In this document: piece by piece, positions 1,569-14,172 of the stretch
Layout of the letters: every line of letters starts with the position of its first letter
Position numbering within the stretch: position 1 is the first letter of the stretch
From: Bdellovibrionota bacterium
GTDB lineage: Bacteria; Bdellovibrionota_C; UBA2361; JBGSMV01
Length of the DNA: 14,172 nt
Assembly: GCA_044356455.1 (NCBI GenBank)
Contig: JBIKWF010000114.1
Location: forward strand, 1-14,172
Direction: 5' to 3'
Notes under the pieces: model-generated
The model's database searches: none
Told to the model about the DNA's origin: nothing
Seen by the model: the letters and a program-made list of their open reading frames with translations, nothing else
Program-made: the position numbers and the translations under genes

Positions 1569-2360
1569 ATGCTCACAAGAACCTGGCAAACACCTTTTCT
1601 TTTCCGTGATGAAGTAGATCGCAGCGTTTTGTGGGGCTTCGGGGTCTCTGCGCTGCTCGTGGGCGGGGCGGTTCTTTTTAGCGGAAATATCGCGAATTAT
1701 TTCGATTTTCCGGGCTTTCTGCTGGTGGTAGGGGGAACTTTCGGAGCGACGCTCGCAAACTACTCGTTGCGTGAAATTGGCTATGCCTGGAAGGCATTTC
1801 TGCGTGTTTCTCAGCATGAACCAGCCGACCCGATCGATCGCATCGATCGCTTGGTTCGGCTAAGCCAAGCAGTAAGAACGCAGGGCGTTATGATTCTTGA
1901 TCGCGAAGCTGAAATTACTCGCGATCCATTCATTCGCACTTCGTTTGAGCTCGTCGTGGATGCAACGCCCGTTGATGATATTCGCCGAATTCTTGAGACA
2001 GAACTTAGGAGTTCCCACGAGAGATCCACGCGTGCGGTGCAGGTATTTGAGACTGCAGGAACTTTTGCCCCCGCACTTGGACTCATTGGTACTCTGGTTG
2101 GTCTTGTGCAGATGTTGGGCGCCCTCAATGATCCGACGACGGTTGGTCCTGCGATGGGCCTTGCGCTTCTTACCACGCTTTATGGTGCTATTCTCGCGAA
2201 TCTCATTTTCCTTCCTGTGGCGGGGAAACTTCGCCTCTTTAATGAAGAGGAGTGGCTCCTAAAATCCCTTTCTATTGAAGGCGCGATAAGTCTTGCAAAA
2301 CAAGAGAATCCGCTGGTGATGGAACAGAGACTCCAAAGTTTTCTACCCCGTAAGCACTAG
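1569..2360 (+). CDS. motA: Flagellar stator A subunit (MotA/PomA/MotP family)
   Basis: 263 aa with four hydrophobic segments. Motifs LLVVGGTFGA, APALGLIGTLVGLVQML and GPAMGLALLTTLYGAILAN..FLPVAGKL. Strong RBS. Confidence 0.95.
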   Translation: MLTRTWQTPFLFRDEVDRSVLWGFGVSALLVGGAVLFSGNIANYFDFPGFLLVVGGTFGATLANYSLREIGYAWKAFLRVSQHEPADPIDRIDRLVRLSQAVRTQGVMILDREAEITRDPFIRTSFELVVDATPVDDIRRILETELRSSHERSTRAVQVFETAGTFAPALGLIGTLVGLVQMLGALNDPTTVGPAMGLALLTTLYGAILANLIFLPVAGKLRLFNEEEWLLKSLSIEGAISLAKQENPLVMEQRLQSFLPRKH

Positions 2361-2378
2361 AGAAGGAGGCGCGCGCGC

Positions 2379-2876
2379 GTGGGATATTCAATTGCAACTC
2401 CGCAGCAGAGGCCTATCACGAGCGCCTTCATGGTCCAGTATATAGCCATGATCTTAATAATTCTAACCGTTATTGCTGGGGTGCTTACCCGCCGTACTGT
2501 GGTAGGTAGCGCCGCCCAGATTCCGCAAACAGCAAACGATCCATTCCTGGTTTCAAGTGCGCGTCCTATTTCCGATTGGTCTGATTTTCGGCCCATTCCT
2601 CAAGCATACCTGCAGTGTATGAGCGAGAATGAATGGACTCCCTTCCGCGAAGTTCTCTCTCAGCACGATTTGACGCTTGCGATTGAACTATTTGTCCCTT
2701 CCTTAACGGTTGGCTTTGCCGAAGCTGAGAATGTTCGCGGTCAGTTATTAAGCACGGTAATGAGCAGCGACGCGGTGCTTGTTTCGTTTGCAGCGCAGCC
2801 ATTCGGGTCTCCTTCATTTATGCGACATCGCTGGCTAAAGACGCTGGCCTCTTCGAAGGTTAGCGATGAATTCTGA
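2379..2876 (+). CDS. Single-TM membrane protein, possibly a degenerate MotB paralogue lacking the catalytic Asp
   Basis: AGGAGG RBS (2364-2369) before GTG 2379. N-terminal TM FMVQYIAMILIILTVIAGVL. C-terminal alpha/beta pattern reminiscent of an OmpA-like fold. The stop overlaps the start of the next gene. The coding call is more secure than the functional call. Confidence 0.7.
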   Translation: MGYSIATPQQRPITSAFMVQYIAMILIILTVIAGVLTRRTVVGSAAQIPQTANDPFLVSSARPISDWSDFRPIPQAYLQCMSENEWTPFREVLSQHDLTLAIELFVPSLTVGFAEAENVRGQLLSTVMSSDAVLVSFAAQPFGSPSFMRHRWLKTLASSKVSDEF

Positions 2877-3465
2877 CATTTCCGCCAATCTTAGTAGCCC
2901 CGGGCTTCAGAGCCCGTATCCGCAGGGAGGAGCGCCGCGTCAAAAAAACCAGGTCTGGCTGGTGACCTTTGGCGATCTTTTGACACTCCTTTTGGGTTTC
3001 TTCATCACGGTAATCGCACTCACACGAGAGGAAAATATAAGAGCTTCAAATAGGTTAGCTCCATCGGCGGCTCCTATAACTGCTCAAGCCGCGTCTGGCA
3101 TCCCGCTTGCTGAAGAGACTAGGGAAGGGTTGGGGCATGCTCCCTCGAGTAGGCCACTTCTCGTGCTCACGGATGAGCACGTGGCCGACCCGCGAAGTGC
3201 AGTGCTTGGAATGTGGCTAAGCGAGTGGATTGAACGTGGAGCCACCAAGTTCGAGTTCTCGATGTGCCAGGAAGGTGCTGAAGAGCTGAAGGTAGGCGAG
3301 AAGATAGCAGCCTTCCTCGAAGTGGCTCTGCCGCCTCAGATCGAGGTGCGCTTCTCGGATGTAGGAATTAGTTGCAGCGAACTTAGGGAACGCGCCCTTG
3401 GAGTTGAAAATGCTGCTCTTGCGCGGGTGGTAGTGCAGGTAAGTTTGGTTTCGAATCATGGCTGA
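2866..3465 (+). CDS. motB: MotB-family stator subunit with canonical TM segment but divergent periplasmic domain
   Basis: WLVTFGDLLTLLLGFFITVIAL is the MotB/PomB TM signature with the conserved Asp (D37). Only 199 aa. No GHTD or NxxLSxxRA motif. Confidence 0.8.
   Translation: MNSDISANLSSPGLQSPYPQGGAPRQKNQVWLVTFGDLLTLLLGFFITVIALTREENIRASNRLAPSAAPITAQAASGIPLAEETREGLGHAPSSRPLLVLTDEHVADPRSAVLGMWLSEWIERGATKFEFSMCQEGAEELKVGEKIAAFLEVALPPQIEVRFSDVGISCSELRERALGVENAALARVVVQVSLVSNHG
3095..3111 (+). promoter_or_regulatory. Intragenic sigma54 promoter candidate, upstream of fliL
   Basis: CTGGCATCCCGCTTGCT gives GG(3097-98)-N10-GC(3109-10). It is near-consensus and nearly identical to the flhB promoter. 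Confidence 0.55.
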
Positions 3466-4027
3466 AGAAAAGGAAAAGAAAGAAGAAGCCGCGCCGGCCT
3501 CTGCACCTGCAGCCGGTGGAGCGAGCATGCTGCTCAAGGTGGGACTTGGGGTGTCCATCCTTTTTGGCATCGCTGGGTTCGCTACGGCGGGAGTGGTGAT
3601 GGCGAAGAAGAAGGCAGCGGATGCTGAGGCGGCTGCCGTAGAAGAGGTGGCAAGCGACGCTGCCGAAGGTCATGGGGAGGATGCTGCAACGGAAGTTTCT
3701 GCAGAAGACGAGCTCGAAGAAGGTGAGCAGGTCATAGGAGCCATTTTCCCGCTTGATACCTTTGTCATTAATCTTAATGGTGGCAAGTACTTACGTGCGC
3801 AAGTTCGGCTCGAGTTTGAGGGCAGGGATGTTCCTAAGAGGTTCTATCCGCGCATTGTTCCCGTAAGAGACGAGCTTCTTGGGATATTAAGTTCGAAACG
3901 CGCAGAGGACCTTTTGACATCTCAAGGAAAGGACAATCTCAAGAAAGAGATAAAGGACAGTATTAACGAGCTGTTACGCAAGGAGGACGTTAAGAACGTC
4001 TACTTTACACAGTTCGTTGTCCAGTAA
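3458..4027 (+). CDS. fliL: Flagellar basal body-associated protein FliL
   Basis: Charged N-terminus, one TM and an acidic linker, then LDTFVINL..GKYLRAQVRLE, VRDELLGILS and VKNVYFTQFVVQ. Lies directly before fliM. Confidence 0.95.
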   Translation: MAEEKEKKEEAAPASAPAAGGASMLLKVGLGVSILFGIAGFATAGVVMAKKKAADAEAAAVEEVASDAAEGHGEDAATEVSAEDELEEGEQVIGAIFPLDTFVINLNGGKYLRAQVRLEFEGRDVPKRFYPRIVPVRDELLGILSSKRAEDLLTSQGKDNLKKEIKDSINELLRKEDVKNVYFTQFVVQ

Positions 4028-4063
4028 GGGTAAGTTTCTAACGTTGTTTTGACGGTTGATGGC

Positions 4064-5092
4064 ATGAATCAGGTTTTAACCCAAGACGAAATCAACTCGC
4101 TCCTCCGCGGTCTCTCCGACAGCGATGTGGAGCAGGATAGCGTTGAGGCCGTCGACAATAAGGTCAACGCCAAGAAGTTCGACCTCGCCAACCAAGAGCG
4201 CATCATCCGCGGTCGTATGCCGACCATGGAACTTATCCATGATCGCTTCGCGCGAAGTTTCCGTACCATTCTTGCAAAGTTTCTTGGAAGAACCTGCTTC
4301 GCCAACGTCGGCGGCATTGAGATGATCAAGTTCGGTTTGTTCATGAAGAAGCTTCCGCTTCCTTCTTCTCTGCACATCTTCCGCATGCCGCCTCTCCCTG
4401 GTTATGCCCTGATGGTGGTTTCTTCTCCCTTAGTATTTGGAATTATCGACGCCGTTTTCGGCGGTAGTGGACAGGGTAGAGTAAAGATTGAAGGCCGTGA
4501 GTATACCCCCATTGAGAACCGTCTCGTGGGTAAGGTCGTCATGATGGCGCTCGACATCCTCAAGGATGCCTGGGCACCTATCCATCCTGTTGATTTCGTC
4601 TACGTTCGTTCCGAATTCAATCCGCTTGCGATTGCGATAGTTCCACCCACGGATGTGGTTATCACGGTAAATATCGAAGTAGAGCTTGAGCAAGAAAGCA
4701 CGGTGCTTACTCTCTGCACTCCTTACTCAACAATTGAGCCTCTGCGCGGTAAGCTCGTCACTGGTTTCCAAAGCACACGCCTTGAAGTTGATAGTTCAAC
4801 CTCAAAGCGCATGGAACGCAGTATTCGCCAGACGATGGCAAACCTCAGTGTGCAATTGGCTCAGGGGTCAATTAAGACCAAAGAACTTCTCAATCTCAAA
4901 GTGGGCGATGTGATGACGATGGATACCAATCCATCGGACGAGGCTCTTGTTAAGCTCGAGGGCAGTCCAAAGTTTTACGCCTACTGCGGTACGTATCGCG
5001 GAAATCGCGCTGCTCGGATCACTCGTCCAGTGCCGGCACGTGATTTGATTAACTTGAAGAACAGGCAGGAGCTTCTGAAAAATGGCGGGTAA
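4064..5092 (+). CDS. fliM: Flagellar motor switch protein FliM
   Basis: MNQVLTQDEINSLL (CheY-binding peptide), RIIRGRMPTMELIHDRFAR, IEGREYTPIE and a C-terminal SpoA domain. ATG 4064 is preferred over TTG 4049. Confidence 0.97.
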   Translation: MNQVLTQDEINSLLRGLSDSDVEQDSVEAVDNKVNAKKFDLANQERIIRGRMPTMELIHDRFARSFRTILAKFLGRTCFANVGGIEMIKFGLFMKKLPLPSSLHIFRMPPLPGYALMVVSSPLVFGIIDAVFGGSGQGRVKIEGREYTPIENRLVGKVVMMALDILKDAWAPIHPVDFVYVRSEFNPLAIAIVPPTDVVITVNIEVELEQESTVLTLCTPYSTIEPLRGKLVTGFQSTRLEVDSSTSKRMERSIRQTMANLSVQLAQGSIKTKELLNLKVGDVMTMDTNPSDEALVKLEGSPKFYAYCGTYRGNRAARITRPVPARDLINLKNRQELLKNGG

Positions 5093-5438
5093 AGACGACG
5101 TTTCAGCAGGACTTGAAGGAGTTGCCTCGGCAGCTGACAAGGTCGCTGCGGCTGCCGGTTCGGCAGGAGCAAAGCAGCCTCGTACGCTAGACTTTATTCT
5201 CGATGTTACCTTGCAGGTGACGGTAGAGGTAGGTCGGGCGCGGATGACTATCCAAGATCTCCTCCAATTAGGACAAGGTTCCGTGATTGAGCTCGAGAAA
5301 TTGGCTGGTGAGCCTCTTGATATCTACGTGAATGGTAAACAGGTCGCCCGAGGTGAGGCAGTAATTGTAAATGAGAAGTTCGGTGTACGCCTTACCGACA
5401 TCATATCTCCAGATGATCGGTTAGAAACGCTCGCCTAA
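5082..5438 (+). CDS. fliN: Flagellar motor switch protein FliN
   Basis: LDFILDVTLQVTVEVGR...LLQLGQGSVIELEKLAGEPLDIYVNG...GEAVIVNEKFGVRLTDI. Overlaps the fliM stop. Confidence 0.97.
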   Translation: MAGKDDVSAGLEGVASAADKVAAAAGSAGAKQPRTLDFILDVTLQVTVEVGRARMTIQDLLQLGQGSVIELEKLAGEPLDIYVNGKQVARGEAVIVNEKFGVRLTDIISPDDRLETLA

Positions 5439-6049
5439 TGTTGGGTCGAGCCTCCCAAGGAAGGGGGTCCATGAGTAGTATTTTTGAAAGATATCATTCT
5501 TTAGCCTTGCGCGCGGTAACAGTGGCTTTCCTGCTACTTGTTCCTCACGCACCACTTGTGGCTGAGGAGACGGCTCAGCACGTTTCGGAGCAGACAATCG
5601 CATCTGCCTCAGAGAACTCTCACTCCTCCTCGGAAACGCAGGCAGCTCCCAAGCGCGATCTTCAGGCAGCGGTGGCATCCCTTCGTCAATCCCCCCAGCC
5701 CGAACCAGAGGTAAGCCCTTGGCCTCTCGCTAAAGGGCTCGCACTTTGTCTCGCCGTCTTCTGTGTCATCGTCTTCCTTTTAAAGCGCTTAAATCCTCAT
5801 TCCCTGCATTCCGGAAAACGGCGCCTTGCCGTGCTCGAGCGACTTCCCCTTTCACCTAAAAGTTCGCTTGTTTTGATTCAAGTTGATGGCCGCACAAGAG
5901 TCATTGCGGTGGGATCAGAGCAAGTCCAGATGCTCGATGGATGGGAGAAGCTACGCTCGCCAGCCCGTGAGTTCGGTGAAGTTCTTGCGACCTTACCAGA
6001 AGCTTCGACCGAGTTGGGAACGCGAGAACAGGGAAAGGGGGCGGCATGA
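5438..6049 (+). CDS. fliO: Flagellar biosynthesis protein FliO (alternative start ATG 5471)
   Basis: TM LAKGLALCLAVFCVIVFLLKR followed by LAVLERLPLSPKSSLVLIQVDGRTRVIAVG (FliO pattern). Located between fliN and fliP. TAATG overlap with fliN. Confidence 0.88.
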   Translation: MLGRASQGRGSMSSIFERYHSLALRAVTVAFLLLVPHAPLVAEETAQHVSEQTIASASENSHSSSETQAAPKRDLQAAVASLRQSPQPEPEVSPWPLAKGLALCLAVFCVIVFLLKRLNPHSLHSGKRRLAVLERLPLSPKSSLVLIQVDGRTRVIAVGSEQVQMLDGWEKLRSPAREFGEVLATLPEASTELGTREQGKGAA

Positions 6050-6801
6050 AACGCACTCTCGCCCTCTTCGTATTTTTACTTCTTCCGGGTGTTGCCTTTG
6101 CGGCGGACAGTTCAGTACTTCCGGACCTTTCCATAAATATTGGTGGATCCGATCTGACATCGGATGGTTCGCTCTCTGCTTCGCTCAAGATTGTTTTTCT
6201 CATGACGGCACTCTCGTTCGTGCCGGCCATGATTCTCACGATGACAAGTTTTACCCGTATCGCGGTAGTGCTCGGCATGGTGAGAACGGCACTTGGTACC
6301 GCCTCTCTACCCCCGAACACGGTGATTACGGGACTCGCACTCTTTCTCACGATCTCTATTATGCAGCCTGTCTACACAGAAATGTATAATGAGGGGTTAA
6401 AGCCATATCTGGATGGTACGATGGGTGACAAGGAGGCCCTTGAGAAGGGGTTCGCACCTTTGAAGCGCTTCCTTGTAAAGCACTCGCGAGATAAAGACCT
6501 CGCGCTCTTCTTAGAGATTACTAAATCCCCGATTCCTGAGGATGAGAATGATGTTCCGTTTCCGGTAGCTGTACCCGCATTCATCTTGAGCGAGCTAAAA
6601 GTAGCATTTCAGATCGGCTTTCTGATCATGTTGCCCTTTCTTGTGCTCGATATGGTGGTGTCATCCGTACTGACCTCCATGAGTATGATTACTCTGCCGC
6701 CAGTCGTTATCTCAATGCCTCTTAAACTTATGTTGTTTGTGGTGGTAGATGGCTGGCATCTTATCGTCGCTTCTCTTGTTCAGACATATCATACAGGTTG
6801 A
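6046..6801 (+). CDS. fliP: Flagellar export gate protein FliP
   Basis: Signal-peptide-like N-terminus, MTSFTRIAVVL..VRTALG...PPN, VPAFILSELKVAFQIGF and PLKLMLFVVVDGW. ATGA overlap with fliO. Confidence 0.98.
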   Translation: MKRTLALFVFLLLPGVAFAADSSVLPDLSINIGGSDLTSDGSLSASLKIVFLMTALSFVPAMILTMTSFTRIAVVLGMVRTALGTASLPPNTVITGLALFLTISIMQPVYTEMYNEGLKPYLDGTMGDKEALEKGFAPLKRFLVKHSRDKDLALFLEITKSPIPEDENDVPFPVAVPAFILSELKVAFQIGFLIMLPFLVLDMVVSSVLTSMSMITLPPVVISMPLKLMLFVVVDGWHLIVASLVQTYHTG

Positions 6802-6803
6802 TT

Positions 6804-7073
6804 ATGGGTGTTGATGACTTTCTCAGATTTGGTCAAGTCGGAATAGAGACAGCCATGCTGGTATCTGCTCCAGTTCTTGTGTTGGGACTGGTGGCGGGTC
6901 TTGCCGTAAGTATCTTTCAGGCAGCGACCCAGATAAATGACTCTGCTCTCGCCTTCATTCCCAAAATTGGAGCAGCAGTTGCGGGGCTCTTAATCTTTGG
7001 CCATTTTATGGTGAACCGCATTGCTGGCTTCACTATGTGGGTCTATGGGCAGATTCCCAACGTTAGTCCTTAG
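6804..7073 (+). CDS. fliQ: Flagellar export gate protein FliQ
   Basis: SAPVLVLGLVAGLAVSIFQAATQINDSALAFIPKI. 89 aa from ATG 6804 (TTG 6798 is an alternative start). Confidence 0.97.
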   Translation: MGVDDFLRFGQVGIETAMLVSAPVLVLGLVAGLAVSIFQAATQINDSALAFIPKIGAAVAGLLIFGHFMVNRIAGFTMWVYGQIPNVSP

Positions 7074-7218
7074 CAAATCGCGACCGGAGGGAGCGATTTG
7101 GAGCGCACCGGAAGGCGACGCCGTGCACGCGGCGCTCGCAGGTGCGCGATGTTGGAAATCGGCCCGGATGGCCGATTTCCTTCAGTAATCTCGCGGACTC
7201 GAAGGGATCCCGTGAGAT
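7074..7218. repeat. Array of four consecutive stem-loops (REP-like or structured RNA element)
   Basis: Stems: CAAATCGC/GCGATTTG (7074-7100); GCGCACC/GGTGCGC with nested CGCCG/CGGCG (7103-7147); GGAAATCGGCC/GGCCGATTTCC (7154-7180); ATCTCGCGG/CCGTGAGAT (7188-7218, one G-T pair). Confidence 0.7.
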
Positions 7219-7238
7219 ATAAAGGTTAGTGGTCTGAT

Positions 7239-8060
7239 ATGAATTTTGAACTTCTCAAGATTGCAGAAGCCGCCCTTGGAAGCATGGACGTCATGTGGAC
7301 CTTGGTGCTTCTGATCGTGAGATTTACGGCGCTCATTGCGCTTCTGCCTGGAATCGGGGCTGGTATGTATGGGCTTACGATTCGGATGCCCGCCGTAATT
7401 GTCTTGGCAACGGCTTCTTGCCTCGCGGGGACTTACGCAGCGCCGCCCACCGACTGGATGACTATGGTCATTCAAGTAGTAGGGGAAACCCTTTTCGGTT
7501 TAAGTTTGGCGCTTATTCCATTGCTGATGGTGGCAGGTGTTCAGCTTGCAGGAAACTTGGCAAGCACTACCATGGGTCTTCAACCTTCACAGCTTATCGA
7601 TCCCACTGCGCAAGTTGCCCTTCCAGATGTGTCGAAGATCTTTGGTGATCTGAGCATAATGCTCTTTCTTTTCATGGGTGGCCATCACGTCATCATATAT
7701 GCGGCAGCGGGCATGGGGGGAGAGATAGTACCAGGCACCTTTATGGTCGGTGGGGCCTCGATCGATGCAATAATGGAGCAGACCCTGCTCATGTGGCGTA
7801 TGGGAGCTACCATTGCTGCTCCGGTAGTGGTGGCATTACTGCTTGCCAATTTTGTGATGGGACTTATCTCCAAGGCTGTTCCGTCAGTGAATATCTTCAT
7901 CGTCAGCTTCCCGCTGACTATAGGCGTAGGACTGTTCCTCTCGGTACTTATGGTACCTGAGCTCATGAACATAGTGGACGCTAAGGTGAGAACTCTTGAG
8001 CCTGCGGTCCATCAAGTGACCCGTGACGCAACCTCTGTCGTCATACCCCCGTCAAAGTGA
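7239..8060 (+). CDS. fliR: Flagellar export gate protein FliR
   Basis: 273 aa, very hydrophobic. GVQLAGNLASTTMGL...IDP, LFLFMGGHHVII and GLISKAVPSVNIFIVSFPLTIGVG. Located between fliQ and flhB. Confidence 0.96.
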   Translation: MNFELLKIAEAALGSMDVMWTLVLLIVRFTALIALLPGIGAGMYGLTIRMPAVIVLATASCLAGTYAAPPTDWMTMVIQVVGETLFGLSLALIPLLMVAGVQLAGNLASTTMGLQPSQLIDPTAQVALPDVSKIFGDLSIMLFLFMGGHHVIIYAAAGMGGEIVPGTFMVGGASIDAIMEQTLLMWRMGATIAAPVVVALLLANFVMGLISKAVPSVNIFIVSFPLTIGVGLFLSVLMVPELMNIVDAKVRTLEPAVHQVTRDATSVVIPPSK

Positions 8061-8143
8061 CGGACTCCTGGCGCGAGACGCACGCGCTGCTCTCTAACCT
8101 ATCGATTCGCCTGCCTCTGCGCCGCCTGCCGCGCATACTTTCT

Positions 8144-8160
8144 TTGGCATCCTCCTTGCT
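8144..8160 (+). promoter_or_regulatory. sigma54 promoter of flhB-flhA-flhF-flhG-(orf)-fliA
   Basis: TTGGCATCCTCCTTGCT gives GG(8146-47)-N10-GC(8158-59). Intergenic, about 70 bp before flhB. Confidence 0.8.
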
Positions 8161-8184
8161 TTGTTAATTCCCACGACGTGGTTT

Positions 8185-8202
8185 GTGTCAGAGCAATGAC
8201 AC
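8185..8202. promoter_or_regulatory. Palindromic FleQ-like activator site downstream of the sigma54 promoter
   Basis: GTGTCA-GAGCAA-TGACAC; the core GTCA-N6-TGAC (8187-8200) has the geometry of a FleQ box. Confidence 0.5.
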
Positions 8203-8228
8203 GGTTATCTCGTTAAGGTTTATAGCGC

Positions 8229-9323
8229 ATGTCAGAGTCATCGACTCCAGAAGAACGTACCGAAATGCCGACTGATAGGCGGATGGGAAAACTGCGCTCA
8301 GAAGGTGCGCTCTTTATCTCTCAGGACACGGTGCAGCTGGCTTCGCTCGTAGCGGGACTCTATCTGTTAATCTGGCTGTGGAACTGGCTCTATGAGGACC
8401 TGCATATCGTTCTCGTGAAGTCGTTCACTATGGCGGGGGATAGAACAGAGCTTACCGTCGCTGCACTGCATGAAGGCTTTCTCAAGCTTCTTCTTCTTAT
8501 CGCGCCGCACATTCTCCTTTTGGCGGGCGGCGTTTCAATAGTGGCAAGCCTTGCCGTGTTTCTTCAAACAGATTGGAACGTCAAAGAGAAGAAGATCAAA
8601 TTCGATTTTAACTTCCTTAACCCTATTAGCGGAATCATGAAGATCTTCTCCGTACAGGGTTTTGTAGTCACTGGAAAAGCAATCCTTAAGCTCGCCATCA
8701 TTCTCCCGATTGCCTATTACGCGCTCATGGAGAAAGCGCCGCTCATGCTTGGTCTCATGCATCTTTCTATTGAGCAGACGCTAGAATTCACCTCCGACAC
8801 GATGCTCTGGATTTTCTGGAAGATATTTAACGTGTTGTTTGTTTTTGCGGTCTTTGACTACGTGTGGGGTAAATTTCAATGGCTCAAGCAAAACAAGATG
8901 ACCAAGTCTGAGGTTAAAGACGAACGAAAATCTGTTGAAGGTGATGAAGAAACAAAGCGTAAAATTATTCACAAAGGAATGTCACGCATAGCGCTGCGTC
9001 TCAAGACGTCCGTTCCTAAGGCGCATGTAATTGTGACGAATCCTACGCACATCTCAATAGCGCTCAGATATGACCGAGCCTCAGATGCGGCGCCGGTAGT
9101 GGTTGCCAAGGGGAAAGGGTTTATGGCCCTCAGAATCCGAGAAATCGCTCGAGAGCACGGCATCCCGATCGTTGAGCGTAAGCCGGTTGCACGCGCGCTC
9201 TTCGAATCAACTGAGGTAGGAGCCATTATCCCACGCGAGATGTTTCGCGCGGTGGCTGAAATCCTAGCCTACGTATATCGATTAAAAAATCCCTACGCGC
9301 AGCGTGCGCAGCAGGCATCGTAG
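8229..9323 (+). CDS. flhB: Flagellar export switch protein FlhB
   Basis: ERTEMPTDRR, KMTKSEVKDERKSVEGD, autocleavage motif NPTH and APVVVAKGKG. Confidence 0.98.
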   Translation: MSESSTPEERTEMPTDRRMGKLRSEGALFISQDTVQLASLVAGLYLLIWLWNWLYEDLHIVLVKSFTMAGDRTELTVAALHEGFLKLLLLIAPHILLLAGGVSIVASLAVFLQTDWNVKEKKIKFDFNFLNPISGIMKIFSVQGFVVTGKAILKLAIILPIAYYALMEKAPLMLGLMHLSIEQTLEFTSDTMLWIFWKIFNVLFVFAVFDYVWGKFQWLKQNKMTKSEVKDERKSVEGDEETKRKIIHKGMSRIALRLKTSVPKAHVIVTNPTHISIALRYDRASDAAPVVVAKGKGFMALRIREIAREHGIPIVERKPVARALFESTEVGAIIPREMFRAVAEILAYVYRLKNPYAQRAQQAS

Positions 9324-9351
9324 TAGAGAAGGGAACTGGTAACGAGGAACT

Positions 9352-11433
9352 ATGGCAGGAGCAGAGGGCGTAAAGGTAAGCAAGCTTAAGAATACGCTTG
9401 CGATCCCGATAGCGATCATCGGGATCCTTGTCATATTGATCTTCCCGATCCCAACGTGGCTGCTCGACGTTCTGCTCGCGCTCAATTTTACTATTTCTCT
9501 CGTGGTGCTGTTTGCTTCACTGTATGTGGAGCGCCCCCTAAAATTCTCGTCATTTCCTGCAATTCTACTTATTACGACCATGTTCCGCCTTGGTATGAAC
9601 GTGGCCTCAACACGTCTTGTACTTCTCAACGCCGAAAGTGGTCTTGCAGCAGCGGGAGAGGTAATTCGAGCGTTCGGTGAGTTCGTGGTAGGCGGTAACT
9701 ACGTCATCGGTGTGGTTATCTACATTGTAATATCGATCGTAAACCTCAAAGTTATTACGAAAGGTTCTGGTCGTATTTCTGAGGTAGCAGCACGATTCAC
9801 CCTTGATGCCATGCCTGGTAAGCAAATGGCTATCGACTCTGACCTCAACACCGGTCTTATTAACGAGTCAGAAGCAAAAATTCGCCGCAAAGAACTTCAG
9901 CAAGAGGCGGAGTTCTACGGAGCGATGGACGGTGCCGCCAAGTTCGTAAGTGGAGACGCCACTGCCGGACTTTTCATCACGGCCATCAATATTATCGGTG
10001 GTTTGTTCATCGGTGTCATTCAGCATGACATGGAGTGGCTTGAGGCTGCGGGTATCTTTACCATTCTTACGATTGGTGATGGACTGGTTGCGCAGATCCC
10101 TTCGATTATGATCTCCTTGGCGTCAGGTCTTATTGTGGCGCGCGCGGGTTCGGGAGATGACCTTGGAACTGAGATCTTTGGTCAGCTCGGCTCCTCAGAG
10201 AAGCCGCTCTACTTAACCGCGGCAGTGTGCGGCGGATTCGCTATCTTGCCCGGCTTGCCCGCTCTTCCGTTCATATTTCTGGGTCTTACTGCCGTGGGAT
10301 TAGCCCATATGAGAAAAGTGCAGGTCAAAGCAGTAGAGGCTAAGGTTGTCGCAGATGAAAAAGCTCTGCCAGATCCGAAGCTTCCTAAGCCCGGGAGCAC
10401 CGAGGAGGTTACGGGACTTCTCGGCATGGACCTTCTTGAGCTTGAAGTGGGCTATGAGCTTGTCTCATTGGTGGAAGGTGGTGAGCTTGTCGAGCGCATT
10501 CGGTCGGTAAGGCGCCAGTTTGCTACTGATTACGGGCTCGTGGTGCCGCCTATTCACATTCGAGACAATGTGCGCATTAAGCCAGGTGAATACCGCTTGA
10601 TGCTCAAGGGAGCACTGATCGGCTCAGGAGAACTTAAAGCGCACCATCTTCTCGCCATGGATCCAGGGAACGCGTCTGCTCCCATGGAAGGAATTCCCAC
10701 CAAGGAGCCCGCCTTTGGCCTTGATGCAAAGTGGATACCTGGACACGAGCGTGAGCGTGCGCAGTTCTCTGGCTACACGGTCGTCGATCACCCAACCGTC
10801 ATTACCACGCACTTAACGGAGATGCTCCGCAGCAATCTGCATGAACTTCTTGGACGTCAAGAAACCCAGCATCTCCTCGACAACGTCGCGAAGCTTGCGC
10901 CTAAGGTAGTAGAGGAACTTGTACCAGGACTCCTCACCGTAGGGCAGGTGCAGCGAGTGCTTGCGCAGTTACTAAAAGAGCAGGTGAGCATTAGAGATCT
11001 ACGCACTATTCTCGAAGTGATTGCGGATTGGGCACCGTCAGTAAAACACCCAGAAAAGTTGGCTGAGTTCGTGCGCCGCAAGCTTTCGCGTTCAATTACT
11101 GCAAAGTACGTAAATGCAGAGGGGATTTTGCCTTTGGCGAGTCTTACCCCCTCCTTAGAGAAGGCACTGAGCGAAGCTGTTCAGCAAACGGATGAGGGGT
11201 CCTTCCTTGCACTAGAACCAGGCGCCGCCCAGGTGCTCATTAACAAGTTTACTAAGGTCGCGGAGAAGTTCATGGAGCTTGGCTCGACTCCGCTGTTTCT
11301 TGCGCCTTCGCATCTAAGAGCCGCATTGGCGCACTTTGTCGATCGCTTTGTCCCGGGCGTACGCGTCATTAGTCACCAAGAAATTGCGCCAAATACGCGC
11401 GTGCAATCACTCGGGGTAATTTCATATGAGTAG
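9352..11433 (+). CDS. flhA: Flagellar export ATPase-platform protein FlhA
   Basis: 693 aa. FHIPEP motif EVAARFTLDAMPGKQMAIDSDL, EFYGAMDGAAKFV, TIGDGLVAQIP and EPAFGLDAKWI. Confidence 0.99.
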   Translation: MAGAEGVKVSKLKNTLAIPIAIIGILVILIFPIPTWLLDVLLALNFTISLVVLFASLYVERPLKFSSFPAILLITTMFRLGMNVASTRLVLLNAESGLAAAGEVIRAFGEFVVGGNYVIGVVIYIVISIVNLKVITKGSGRISEVAARFTLDAMPGKQMAIDSDLNTGLINESEAKIRRKELQQEAEFYGAMDGAAKFVSGDATAGLFITAINIIGGLFIGVIQHDMEWLEAAGIFTILTIGDGLVAQIPSIMISLASGLIVARAGSGDDLGTEIFGQLGSSEKPLYLTAAVCGGFAILPGLPALPFIFLGLTAVGLAHMRKVQVKAVEAKVVADEKALPDPKLPKPGSTEEVTGLLGMDLLELEVGYELVSLVEGGELVERIRSVRRQFATDYGLVVPPIHIRDNVRIKPGEYRLMLKGALIGSGELKAHHLLAMDPGNASAPMEGIPTKEPAFGLDAKWIPGHERERAQFSGYTVVDHPTVITTHLTEMLRSNLHELLGRQETQHLLDNVAKLAPKVVEELVPGLLTVGQVQRVLAQLLKEQVSIRDLRTILEVIADWAPSVKHPEKLAEFVRRKLSRSITAKYVNAEGILPLASLTPSLEKALSEAVQQTDEGSFLALEPGAAQVLINKFTKVAEKFMELGSTPLFLAPSHLRAALAHFVDRFVPGVRVISHQEIAPNTRVQSLGVISYE

Positions 11434-11440
11434 GAATCAC

Positions 11441-12436
11441 ATGGAAATAAGAACCTTTCGCGGAAAAGAGCTCGGCGCCGTCATGGGGCACGTTCGGACC
11501 ATGCTCGGAGAGGAGGCTATGATCGTGAACACGCGCTATCTCCCCGACAAATCCGTTGAAGTTGAAGTAGCTGTCGAGACGGCAGCTCCTGTGGCGAGAG
11601 CTCCTTTTGTCGCTCCGCTTGTGCGCTTAACGGATGCACGTATAGCGGACGAGCATCCCGCCGTTGATCTTTTGCGCAGTGCGGGGGTTCGTGCACCTTT
11701 GCTGCCAAGAATTGAGAGCCGACTTTCTAGCACGTTGCCCTTGAGCGAGACCTTGCCTCAAGCGCTTGCGGCTTCGCTCGCCTTTGATAGCTCGCTTGCG
11801 CCCCAGAGGCCGGGTGACCCGCGTGTGGTCGCACTCGTCGGACCAACGGGCGTCGGTAAAACCACAACCCTTGCAAAGCTAGCTGCACAGCTGCGCCTTG
11901 CCTTCGATATCAAGATTGGGTTCATTAGTGCTGACTCATTTAGAGTTGGCGCGGCTCATCAGCTGCAAAGTTATGCAACGCTACTTAAGATTCCCTGCCG
12001 CACCGTGTGCCCGCCAGGCGCGCGCCGCGTCGGCGCTGCGATGGTGGAAAGCATCGACGAAGCAATCGAAGAGTTCCGGGGCATGGATCTGATCTTGGTA
12101 GATACCGCGGGTACCAGTGCGCGGGATCGAGAGCGTCTCCAGTTGCTTCAGGAATCATTGGGAGAAGGGGAGCATATTGAGCGCGTGCTTGTGGTGCAGG
12201 CCCCTTCAAACGACCGAGACCTCGCCGATGTGGCAGAATCCTTTGCTCGTCTGCACTTTTCGCGGCTGATTGTAACGAAGATTGATGAAAGCGCGCATTT
12301 GGGGCCCGTACTTAACCTTGCGAATCAACTGAAGAAACCGCTTGCCTTTTTATGTAGCGGACAGCGGGTTCCGGAGGACATAGAACCGGCCAGTGCCGAA
12401 CGCGTGTCTTGGATGCTAACTAGCCGATTTAATTAG
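11441..12436 (+). CDS. flhF: SRP-type GTPase FlhF (alternative start 11426)
   Basis: MEIRTFRG N-terminus with AGGA upstream, G1 GPTGVGKTT, G3 DTAG, G4 TKIDE and GQRVPEDI. Confidence 0.96.
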   Translation: MEIRTFRGKELGAVMGHVRTMLGEEAMIVNTRYLPDKSVEVEVAVETAAPVARAPFVAPLVRLTDARIADEHPAVDLLRSAGVRAPLLPRIESRLSSTLPLSETLPQALAASLAFDSSLAPQRPGDPRVVALVGPTGVGKTTTLAKLAAQLRLAFDIKIGFISADSFRVGAAHQLQSYATLLKIPCRTVCPPGARRVGAAMVESIDEAIEEFRGMDLILVDTAGTSARDRERLQLLQESLGEGEHIERVLVVQAPSNDRDLADVAESFARLHFSRLIVTKIDESAHLGPVLNLANQLKKPLAFLCSGQRVPEDIEPASAERVSWMLTSRFN

Positions 12437-12476
12437 TCAAATTAAGTTCTCATAAAAATCTGAGCCATAGAGGCGT

Positions 12477-13403
12477 ATGCAGCAATCAAATAAGAGAGAT
12501 CCCGTGATCCAGGATCAGGCTGAATCACTGAGACGTACAAGGTTTATGAAACAAGCGGTTGAGCAGAAGGTTACGCGAAGTCGCGCCGCAGTAAGTCGCG
12601 TCATGAGTTTTACCAGCGGCAAAGGTGGCGTTGGTAAGACCAGCATGGTGGTAAATACCGCTGTGGCGCTCGCGCGTGCGGGAAAATCCGTTCTTATCCT
12701 CGATGCGGACTTAGGGCTTGCGAACGTAGATGTGCTGCTTGGACTAAAGCCCACCGCAACTCTTCTCGATGTATTTGAAGGCCGCGCCTCCCTTGATGAA
12801 ATCATGGTCGAAGGGCCTGAAGGAATCTCAATTATTCCGGCCGCAAGTGGTGTTGAATCTATCTGCAATCTAGACGCAGGGCGTCAGATGCTTCTTATGC
12901 AAGCGGTCGAGAACATGGCGCCGCAGTTCGATTATCTCCTTATTGATACTCAAGCCGGTATTAGTTCTGACGTCATGTACTTCAACTCAGCGGCGAGCGA
13001 AATCGTCGTGGTCATCACTGGTGAACCCACGTCACTGACTGATGCCTATGCGCTTATTAAAGTGCTCTCTCAGAACTACGGCGAACATTCCTTTTCCGTA
13101 ATTGCGAACAATGTGCGTGACGAGCGTGATGGACAGCGTGCCTTTGGGCGCCTCCATGGTGCGGTCACGCAGTTTCTTCAGGTTCAGGTGCGCTATCTTG
13201 GGTTTGTCCCGGCTGATAGCGCCATGCAGGAGGCAATACGTTCGCAGCGCTCGCTCATGGAGCTTTTCCCAAGCTCGAAAGCGGCGCTCGCGGTAGGACA
13301 GATTTCAAGACGAATTGATGAGGCGTTCCATGAGCATCGAGTGAAGGGGGGCATGCAGTTCTTCTTCAATCGATTGCTTGAGGTGAGCGCTTCTGACCGG
13401 TAG
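12477..13403 (+). CDS. flhG: MinD-like ATPase FlhG/FleN
   Basis: N-terminal DQAESLR activator motif, deviant Walker A SGKGGVGKT, DADLGLANVD and EPTSLTDAYALIK. Follows flhF. Confidence 0.96.
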   Translation: MQQSNKRDPVIQDQAESLRRTRFMKQAVEQKVTRSRAAVSRVMSFTSGKGGVGKTSMVVNTAVALARAGKSVLILDADLGLANVDVLLGLKPTATLLDVFEGRASLDEIMVEGPEGISIIPAASGVESICNLDAGRQMLLMQAVENMAPQFDYLLIDTQAGISSDVMYFNSAASEIVVVITGEPTSLTDAYALIKVLSQNYGEHSFSVIANNVRDERDGQRAFGRLHGAVTQFLQVQVRYLGFVPADSAMQEAIRSQRSLMELFPSSKAALAVGQISRRIDEAFHEHRVKGGMQFFFNRLLEVSASDR

Positions 13404-13429
13404 TCACGGAAGACGCGAAGGGAGAGAGC

Positions 13430-13660
13430 ATGGCTGCAGAAGTAAAAAAGAAAGTACGCTACGCGTACATTCATAAATTTGCTGCTGCCGTAGCACTGCT
13501 CTGTTTTGGTGTAATTGTGGCTGCCGGAATGATGGCTGAAGCCCGGTTCGTCACCATCGCGTTTAGGGCGTTTGTGGTGACCCTCGCTATTTCAGTAGTG
13601 AGCAGGGTGATCGTTAGTATTCTGGCTTCGTACGAGGAGATGAACAGTGGCAAAGCTTAA
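13430..13660 (+). CDS. Small hypothetical membrane protein (76 aa, two TM helices)
   Basis: GGAGAG RBS, basic N-terminus and two hydrophobic stretches. Fills the flhG-fliA gap and overlaps the fliA start. Confidence 0.8.
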   Translation: MAAEVKKKVRYAYIHKFAAAVALLCFGVIVAAGMMAEARFVTIAFRAFVVTLAISVVSRVIVSILASYEEMNSGKA

Positions 13661-14172
13661 GAAGTCAGCAGTTGAGGCATATAAACAAATAGACGACTAC
13701 GAGAAGGAGCAGCTCATTAAGAGTTATCTGCCGCTCGTGAAAAAGGTGGTGCACCGCCTCTCTGGCCGCTTGCCAAAGGATGTCGATATTCGCGAGATGC
13801 TTAATTCAGGAATCATCGGTCTTGTGGATGCTTTGGAGAAATATGATCCAAAGCACGAGACGAATTTTTCGACCTATGCCCAGTTCCGTATCCGCGGCGC
13901 TATTCTTGATAGCTTCCGGAGTCAGGATTGGCTTCCTCGGTCACTGCGCTTTAAGTCTCATCGAATCGAGCAAGCCTACCACCGGGTTGAGCAGAAACTT
14001 GGCCGTCCAGCCACTGACGAAGAAGTTGCGGTTGAGCTCGGAGTGAATATTGATGAGCTCCAAGCACTGCTTGGAGAAGTAGGTAGCATCGTGATGCTGA
14101 GCTTCGAGGAGCTTGGATTTGGGCACGGAGAAGAGCGTTTTAAGGCCGACGAGATGCTCGCGAGCCGCTCTG
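13647..14172 (+). CDS. fliA: RNA polymerase sigma-28 factor FliA/WhiG, 3' end truncated by the window
   Basis: Not in the ORF track because there is no stop in the window. GAGGAG RBS (13634-13639) then GTG 13647. Manual translation gives LIKSYLPLVKKVVHRL..RLP, GIIGLVDALEKYDP, FSTYAQFRIRGAILDSFRSQDWLPRSLR and LGRPATDEEVA. Confidence 0.96.
   Translation, partial: MAKLKKSAVEAYKQIDDYEKEQLIKSYLPLVKKVVHRLSGRLPKDVDIREMLNSGIIGLVDALEKYDPKHETNFSTYAQFRIRGAILDSFRSQDWLPRSLRFKSHRIEQAYHRVEQKLGRPATDEEVAVELGVNIDELQALLGEVGSIVMLSFEELGFGHGEERFKADEMLASRS

Follow-up and report, generated by a model that had tools for sequence, protein, structure and literature searches.

Present 5:2 models of the flagellar stator require a pair of equivalent B chains, each with its Asp, that work alternately, and the locus studied here raises the question of what kind of stator is encoded when motA is followed by two MotB-like genes of which only the second carries the aspartate. 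The window, i.e., the whole 14,172-nt stretch that was analyzed, is a flagellar operon of the source genome (G000, Bdellovibrionota), reading from motA onward to fliA in the ORF list. An original prediction made from the letters had placed the two genes after motA with an 11-nt overlap and had ascribed to their products a similar layout with one transmembrane (TM) helix each; sequence and ORF list confirm the coordinates and the overlap, and a single hydrophobic segment is present in each of the two proteins, here called B' and B. The features of the locus are:

1569..2360, plus strand: motA, a PomA/MotC-type A subunit (Pfam MotA_ExbB and NCBIfam PomA/MotP matches)
2364..2369, plus strand: AGGAGG ribosome-binding site, 9 nt 5' of the GTG start of B' (sequence)
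2379..2876, plus strand: B', Asp-less MotB paralogue of 165 aa with a GTG start, assigned by AF2, structural matches and hhalign
2436..2447, plus strand: B' Gln20 (PomB T21 position) and Ala23 (Asp slot), compared with 150 family representatives
2664..2669, plus strand: B' His96-Asp97, a near-invariant motif (best 150 family representatives)
2866..3465, plus strand: B, Asp-bearing MotB of 199 aa with D37 at 2974-2976, assigned by Pfam, alignment, AF2 and hhalign
3265 and 3373, plus strand: B Cys134 and Cys170, in place of the GHTD and GxG positions (profile alignment)
3458..4027, plus strand: fliL, overlapping the stop of B (Pfam FliL, E 8e-23)
4049..14171, plus strand: fliM, fliN, fliO, fliP, fliQ, fliR, flhB, flhA, flhF, flhG, a small ORF and fliA (partial), with fliO named by Pfam and the other names given by reading translations

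Three further frames of the window are without a Pfam match: a 5'-cut ORF at 1-327, which may resemble a transposase C-terminus, one of 181 aa at 591-1136, and a hydrophobic one of 76 aa between flhG and fliA (13430-13660). A sigma-70 promoter was looked for and none was found. In small shares of two metatranscriptome runs, read-length pieces at a depth of 2-3 covered motA, B and fliL and none covered B'; reads as sparse as these are no evidence for or against B' expression.

Profile and structure comparisons show that B' is a genuine MotB paralogue without the Asp. Its single, N-terminal TM helix lies in MotB register in the profile alignment and the AF2 model and is the most conserved part of the protein, and the 39-row B' alignment has the consensus F..QY.SLILIILTF and one invariant His. 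The by-eye register that had put Ala where the membrane aspartate (E. coli D32, PomB D24) should be agrees with the profile-profile alignment, in which the residue is Ala23. Asp occurs at this slot in none of the 39 alignment rows and in none of the best 150 family representatives, which carry Ser (100), Ala (39), Thr (8), Gly (2) or a gap (1) there and, at position -3, Gln in 135 and Glu in 4. The His-Asp motif is present in all 150 of these representatives, which were chosen by a profile that rewards it; it immediately precedes a strand that, in homologues with intact OmpA motifs, has GHTD at its end, and in two such intact B' proteins HDL or HEL directly precedes IEGHTD.

The AF2 model of B' (pLDDT 79) consists of the TM helix at residues ~17-36, a low-confidence linker and, at ~60-155, a degenerate OmpA-like domain of beta-alpha-beta-alpha-beta-beta order. 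All of the top 30 VIA structural matches are OmpA-like domains, assigned from their titles or, in a few cases, from what we presume the proteins to be; they include H. pylori MotB, PomB, MotS and D. vulgaris DVU_2228, and their Z-scores are middling, all below 8 (best Z 7.4, rmsd 3.1, 96 aligned residues). In hhalign comparisons, the window-type B' profile reached a probability of 96.2% over TM plus domain against Asp-less, OmpA-intact first genes and 86.5%, for the domain alone, against Asp-bearing second genes. An OmpA-like C-terminus lacking GHTD and LSxxRA, as had been claimed for B', is thus supported by both homology and structural matches, and what was found for ORF 2379-2876 is a MotB-like rather than an unrelated fold. 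The fold comparison gave a divided answer at one point: the top VIA matches of B' are OmpA-like, but Foldseek returned nothing at E <= 1e-3 for either chain, and the matches of the B model were mixed, with unrelated rows tied. The top Foldseek rows, IspF for B' and Rid/L30e for B, were rejected as generic alpha/beta likenesses with E not <= 1e-3. Searched against PDB sequences, the B' profile yielded chance rows only, a search of the ESM Atlas gave only matches below 0.9, and B' has no match in Pfam or NCBIfam. Both chains are absent among the 13 OmpA-domain matches of G000 in Pfam. Since neither Pfam nor NCBIfam detects B' genes, annotation passes the family over.

B is the more conventional chain at its N-terminus and shares the degeneration at its C-terminus. 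The predicted WLVTFGDL is present with D37 as its Asp, which is invariant in 38/38 alignment rows, and Pfam MotB_plug matches at E 5e-7, although only over residues 26-51, i.e., the TM segment. The window-type B profile scored 99.3% against intact second genes and 95.7% against first genes, and weak Pfam OmpA matches occur in 7 of the 38 B members, the window's own B having none. On this evidence B has an OmpA-like fold, degenerate and without peptidoglycan-binding motifs: GHTD, LSxxRA and NRRV are found in 0/38, 1/38 and 0/38 B rows, as compared with GHTD in 19/19 ordinary MotBs, and in 0/39, 1/39 and 0/39 B' rows. The loss of wall-binding motifs from B' had thus been read correctly, while the same loss in B had been overlooked. 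A cysteine pair is present in 33 of the 38 B members; Cys134 and Cys170 probably form a disulfide and probably close the former GHTD/GxG pocket. An amphipathic plug helix after the B' TM was not found, there being no Pfam match and an unconserved segment with Pro in 29/39 rows, and the median hydrophobic moment after the TM is 0.39 in window-type vs. 0.55 in intact B'. In B, the MotB_plug match ends at profile position 38-39 of 58 and the AF2 helix continues to residue 62 through an unconserved segment. As judged from alignments and models, a conserved plug helix is not evident on either chain.

The A subunit next to these chains retains its ion-site and torque residues. The closest solved relative of the window MotA is PomA (E 2e-43), and its T175, T202 and T203 correspond to PomA T158, T185 and T186 of the Na+ site, with equivalents in 37, 28 and 37 of 37 loci, respectively. 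R103 and D111 stand at rotor-contact positions (R/K in 35/37, E/D in 36/37). Only these MotA residues suggest Na+ as the ion of the stator. A TGA seemingly inside motA of two relatives (G012 and G016) proved to be the normal terminal stop. The neighboring fliL adjoins B in 29 of 36 window-type loci; seven relatives are without fliL in the operon, and 5/5 of those tested have it elsewhere in the genome. G000 itself has a second, stand-alone fliL at 8408-9118 of L002 (C168).

The gene order is widely conserved. Among 40 fetched motA loci (of 43 places in 41 genomes, two G000 places and one contig-end place being left out), 36 have motA-B'-B-(fliL)-fliM, two are stand-alone motA-B'-B sets with intact OmpA motifs, and two hold one long PomB-like gene. 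The order that the original prediction had proposed to examine is thus a conserved one, and B' and B overlap in 32 of the 36 loci, with starts chosen automatically. In a profile search, 84 of the 88 genomes from this bacterial order carry B', as does 1 of 33 others, without internal stops; the profile was itself built from 36 relatives and G000. The four genomes of the order without B' are also without MotB_plug and FliG_C matches. Scans of genome contigs with single proteins gave one locus each, and the profile retrieves 386 proteins at 50% clustering; a public record labelled as a Deltaproteobacteria MAG also holds a member of the B' family. For B', the 7 pairs out of 10 that could be computed (3 were saturated) give dN/dS values of 0.16-0.36, indicating purifying selection, and B has values of 0.23-0.58; when only the three least saturated pairs are taken, B' has 0.16-0.29, B has 0.23-0.40 and motA has 0.02-0.17. 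Because of these values, B' is taken to be constrained as much as the Asp-bearing B. That B' is a decaying duplicate would suit its fast evolution (~27% identity to a same-genus copy) and its loss of motifs, yet with no stop in the matches of 85 genomes, 386 representatives at that clustering level and dN/dS well below 1 this reading is scarcely credible, and the initial argument against simple decay stands.

The window is one of three stator loci in G000, of which the other two had escaped the original prediction. One (C35; L001 7301-9544) consists of motA, an Asp-less B' (FAAL) and an Asp-bearing B outside the flagellar genes, with GHTD, LSxxRA and NRRV intact in both OmpA domains. The other (C24) is an E. 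coli-type MotAB. Apart from the window-type pair, 36/37 relatives encode another MotB whose plug match is complete; it is E. coli-type in 19 of 20 loci read, and the MotA of this ordinary MotAB is highly conserved (64-84% to the G000 copy). The window stator as the organism's only stator is ruled out by this separate MotAB, and the presence of an ordinary MotB in 36/37 relatives implies that motility does not depend on the window-type unit, which may thus do without torque generation. Sets of the C35 type were also seen in G001, G031, G057, G058 and G061.

In a set of 20 loci read, 17 carry two B-like genes, and in 17/17 the first is without Asp and the second with it; two further motA-B'-B loci of this kind were seen beyond the 20. 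Depending on the locus, sister orders have kept the wall-binding motifs on the two chains alike, on a single chain, or not at all. Among 80 MotB loci outside the class, 3, one in Desulfobacteria beside fliL/M and two in Nitrospirota, consist of motA, an Asp-less B' and a second MotB, with the second-gene Asp not displayed in one of them (L170). The graded motif series and the occurrence of the layout outside the class therefore place the loss of Asp early and the loss of the wall anchor later. In a 77-row quick tree the window-type B' stands apart from intact B', with long branches meeting, and in a 55-row tree (11 long or odd rows dropped, then thinned) all B' together is not rejected (lnL 0.99 higher, p-AU 0.56); a single origin of B' is allowed, not shown, by the trees. 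One relative (G045) has lost B': at L130 1457-2891 its motA is directly followed by a single Asp-bearing B without GHTD and then fliL, and no full-length B' match was found elsewhere in its genome. Some loci depart from the common pattern: an intact-B'-type protein (P0164) has Asp at the slot, L162 3561-6336 (G096) has a PomA-type motA with two Asp-bearing MotBs of which the first is without GHTD, and G063, outside the order, holds a window-type and a sister-type operon (L133, L136). The window-type operon of G063 is carried by a contig of 3.3 kb on which the frame of fliL becomes unrelated, and the bin is perhaps mixed.

Whether B pairs with B' is hinted at by gene overlap, complementary helix residues and plug asymmetry, which together suggest a heterodimer. 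In the coiled-coil register, D+13 is a core position flanked by D+12 (Ridone 2023, bioRxiv 10.1101/2023.03.05.530362). Among 14 less-diverged pairs, which are related so that the counts are not independent samples, 12 carry Arg/Lys at D+12 of B and 11 carry Asp/Asn at +13 of B'; the two pairs without Arg/Lys are also without Asp/Asn, and one pair has Arg without a partner. Arg/Lys at D+12 occurs in 0/92 ordinary MotBs, and the lone B of G045 has Ser there; the L080 pair breaks the Arg rule. In the nine pairs with a MotB_plug match on both genes, the match extends to position 56-58 on B' and to 44-55 on B, and the post-TM hydrophobic moment is greater on B' in 10 of 14 pairs, lower in 3 and tied in 1. 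Plugs act in trans (Hu 2023, PMC10374538), so that one retained by B', which has no Asp, would lie over the live channel. A single Asp-bearing B with a full plug match was seen at G063 C315. Both hints come from relatives, as the window's order has lost the Arg/Asp-Asn pairing and the plug; it has Gly at -1 and Phe at +9 of B opposite Thr/Ile/Val in B'.

These observations also bear on two rival readings, a brake and a scaffold. B' could be a brake that forms inactive A5B'2 units or poisons A5B2 ones and in this way sets how many stators are active; a chain lacking Asp might inhibit when placed in the MotA pore, and G045 shows B able to stand alone. However, gene overlap implies a fixed ratio rather than regulation, and chain-specific Arg vs. 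Asp/Asn together with the plug asymmetry fits B:B' better than two homodimers, which makes a brake distinctly improbable. The second possibility, that B' is a MotB-derived accessory scaffold beside an A5B2 stator and outside the MotA pore, would account for the new invariant His-Asp motif in its periplasmic part and for its strong divergence from MotB. We consider it very improbable, as a mere membrane anchor needs no conserved F..QY.SL.L..L.F helix in MotB register.

The explanation toward which we lean, by a small measure, is a MotA5:B:B' stator of the Na+ type that has a single Asp and is anchored through proteins, not through the wall. The operon would then encode a second stator with a heterodimer stalk, in which the TM helices of B and B' form a pair within the ring of MotA subunits. 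In PomAB, one Na+ site comes from PomA alone and the other from PomB T21 and D24 (Hu 2023, PMC10374538), and at the T21 and D24 positions B' has Gln and Ser/Ala. With one charged site, therefore, the alternating 36-degree cycle as written cannot apply to A5:B:B'. The ion would be taken by B D37 alone, and the other half-channel would be filled by B', whose face there is uncharged (Gln at -3, Ser/Ala at the slot), although a weak uncharged site on B' would fit as well. Each ion would yield one step, either of 72 degrees or as stroke-and-reset, instead of alternation between two Asp; a stroke-and-reset or escapement alternative is also allowed by the structures of Deme 2020 (bioRxiv 10.1101/2020.05.12.089201), according to which the plug is not the sole seal. 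The stronger claim, that of a torque-generating 5:1:1 stator that has only one ion-binding Asp, lacks a plug and does not bind peptidoglycan, is one that we put forward tentatively.

A protein anchor would be needed because the wall-binding motifs are gone from both chains. The degenerate OmpA-like domains may dimerize and be held by a FliL ring or by a scaffold in the periplasm, for which the His-Asp motif of B' and the Cys-closed domain of B are possible contacts, with FliL as the candidate holder, and wall-anchored torque would be supplied by the ordinary E. coli-type H+ MotAB encoded elsewhere. Stators held in protein cages are described for C. jejuni (PMC12222027) and Borrelia (bioRxiv 10.64898/2026.10.14.759253). 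A related reading is that A5:B:B', or a similar complex, does form but, having one Asp, no plug and no wall anchor, makes no torque; it would serve at the C-ring as a placeholder, clutch or load/assembly sensor, and the motor would be driven by the ordinary MotAB. It draws on the near-universal ordinary MotB and its conserved MotA, on the plug plus linker and peptidoglycan-binding domain as flagellar stator hallmarks (Puente-Lelievre 2025), which are degenerate here, and on the rotor-disengaged retained stators of Borrelia (bioRxiv 10.64898/2026.10.14.759253). The retention of the MotA ion-site threonines (37/37), the B Asp (38/38) and the rotor-contact charges nevertheless speaks against it, as do the cages that hold C. 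jejuni stators, and we regard it as unlikely.

In comparison with PomA5PomB2 and MotA5MotB2 as the available accounts describe them, the window shares a PomA-type A subunit with T158/T185/T186 equivalents, single-TM OmpA-like B chains and a place beside fliL-fliM. Unlike them, it has two distinct B genes, one of them Asp-less, no GHTD/LSxxRA/NRRV or conserved plug, a conserved Cys pair in B, and a conserved Gln and His-Asp in B'. Pseudomonas, in the accounts available, likewise combines a PomA/MotC-like stator (MotCD) within flagellar genes with a separate E. coli-type MotAB. Each Pseudomonas stator set has one Asp-bearing B gene, whereas the operon set of G000 has B and B', in addition to a third motA-B'-B set. 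The nearest operon described is that of the Na+-driven stator of Aquifex aeolicus, with one motA followed by motB1 and motB2, but the TM/N-terminal regions of the two are 97% identical, with one Gly/Ser difference, and each MotB chimera worked alone with MotA (Takekawa 2015, PMC4525482, in the text available); being near-identical and functional singly, neither is an Asp-less partner. Myxococcus AglR/AglQ/AglS also has one A-type and two B-type genes; it differs in being ExbBD/TolQR-type and non-flagellar, with both B chains predicted to bear Asp, and whether they form hetero- or homodimers is stated as unknown in the accessible text (PMC9389320).

No description of an Asp-less tandem MotB was found in the literature searched, which lay mainly outside subscription journals and supplements. 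The terms tandem, aspartate and D32 are absent from the main text of a 205-genome stator phylogeny (PMC12505986), and its data set, in which B is the gene right after motA, may contain Asp-less MotBs unremarked; the accessible parts of PMC12704724, PMC9093738 and PMC11658791 hold nothing on such genes. The window adds the doubly anchor-less form and the graded series of motif loss, together with a sister locus of G000 that is still intact. If a natural, conserved one-Asp heterodimer exists, step size, ions per turn and both models become directly testable. If, in addition, it generates torque without plug or peptidoglycan binding, an alternating two-Asp, 36-degree cycle would not be required, and a whole bacterial order would have exchanged wall anchoring for a protein anchor. 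The OmpA-intact copy at C35 is the more convenient reagent, whereas with the window copy one can also ask how a stator stays in place when it does not bind the wall.

G000 further shows a large flagellin expansion: its Flagellin_N matches number 25, of which 22 approach the full length of the domain, and they lie on many contigs in frames of 288-640 aa. The genome also carries two extra FlhA/SctV-family genes: one at L004 6426-11992 (G000:C7) near YscJ/FliF-like, FliMN_C, TPR and sigma-70 genes, and one at L003 6610-12403 (G000:C184) near a T2SSE ATPase and two T2SSF genes.
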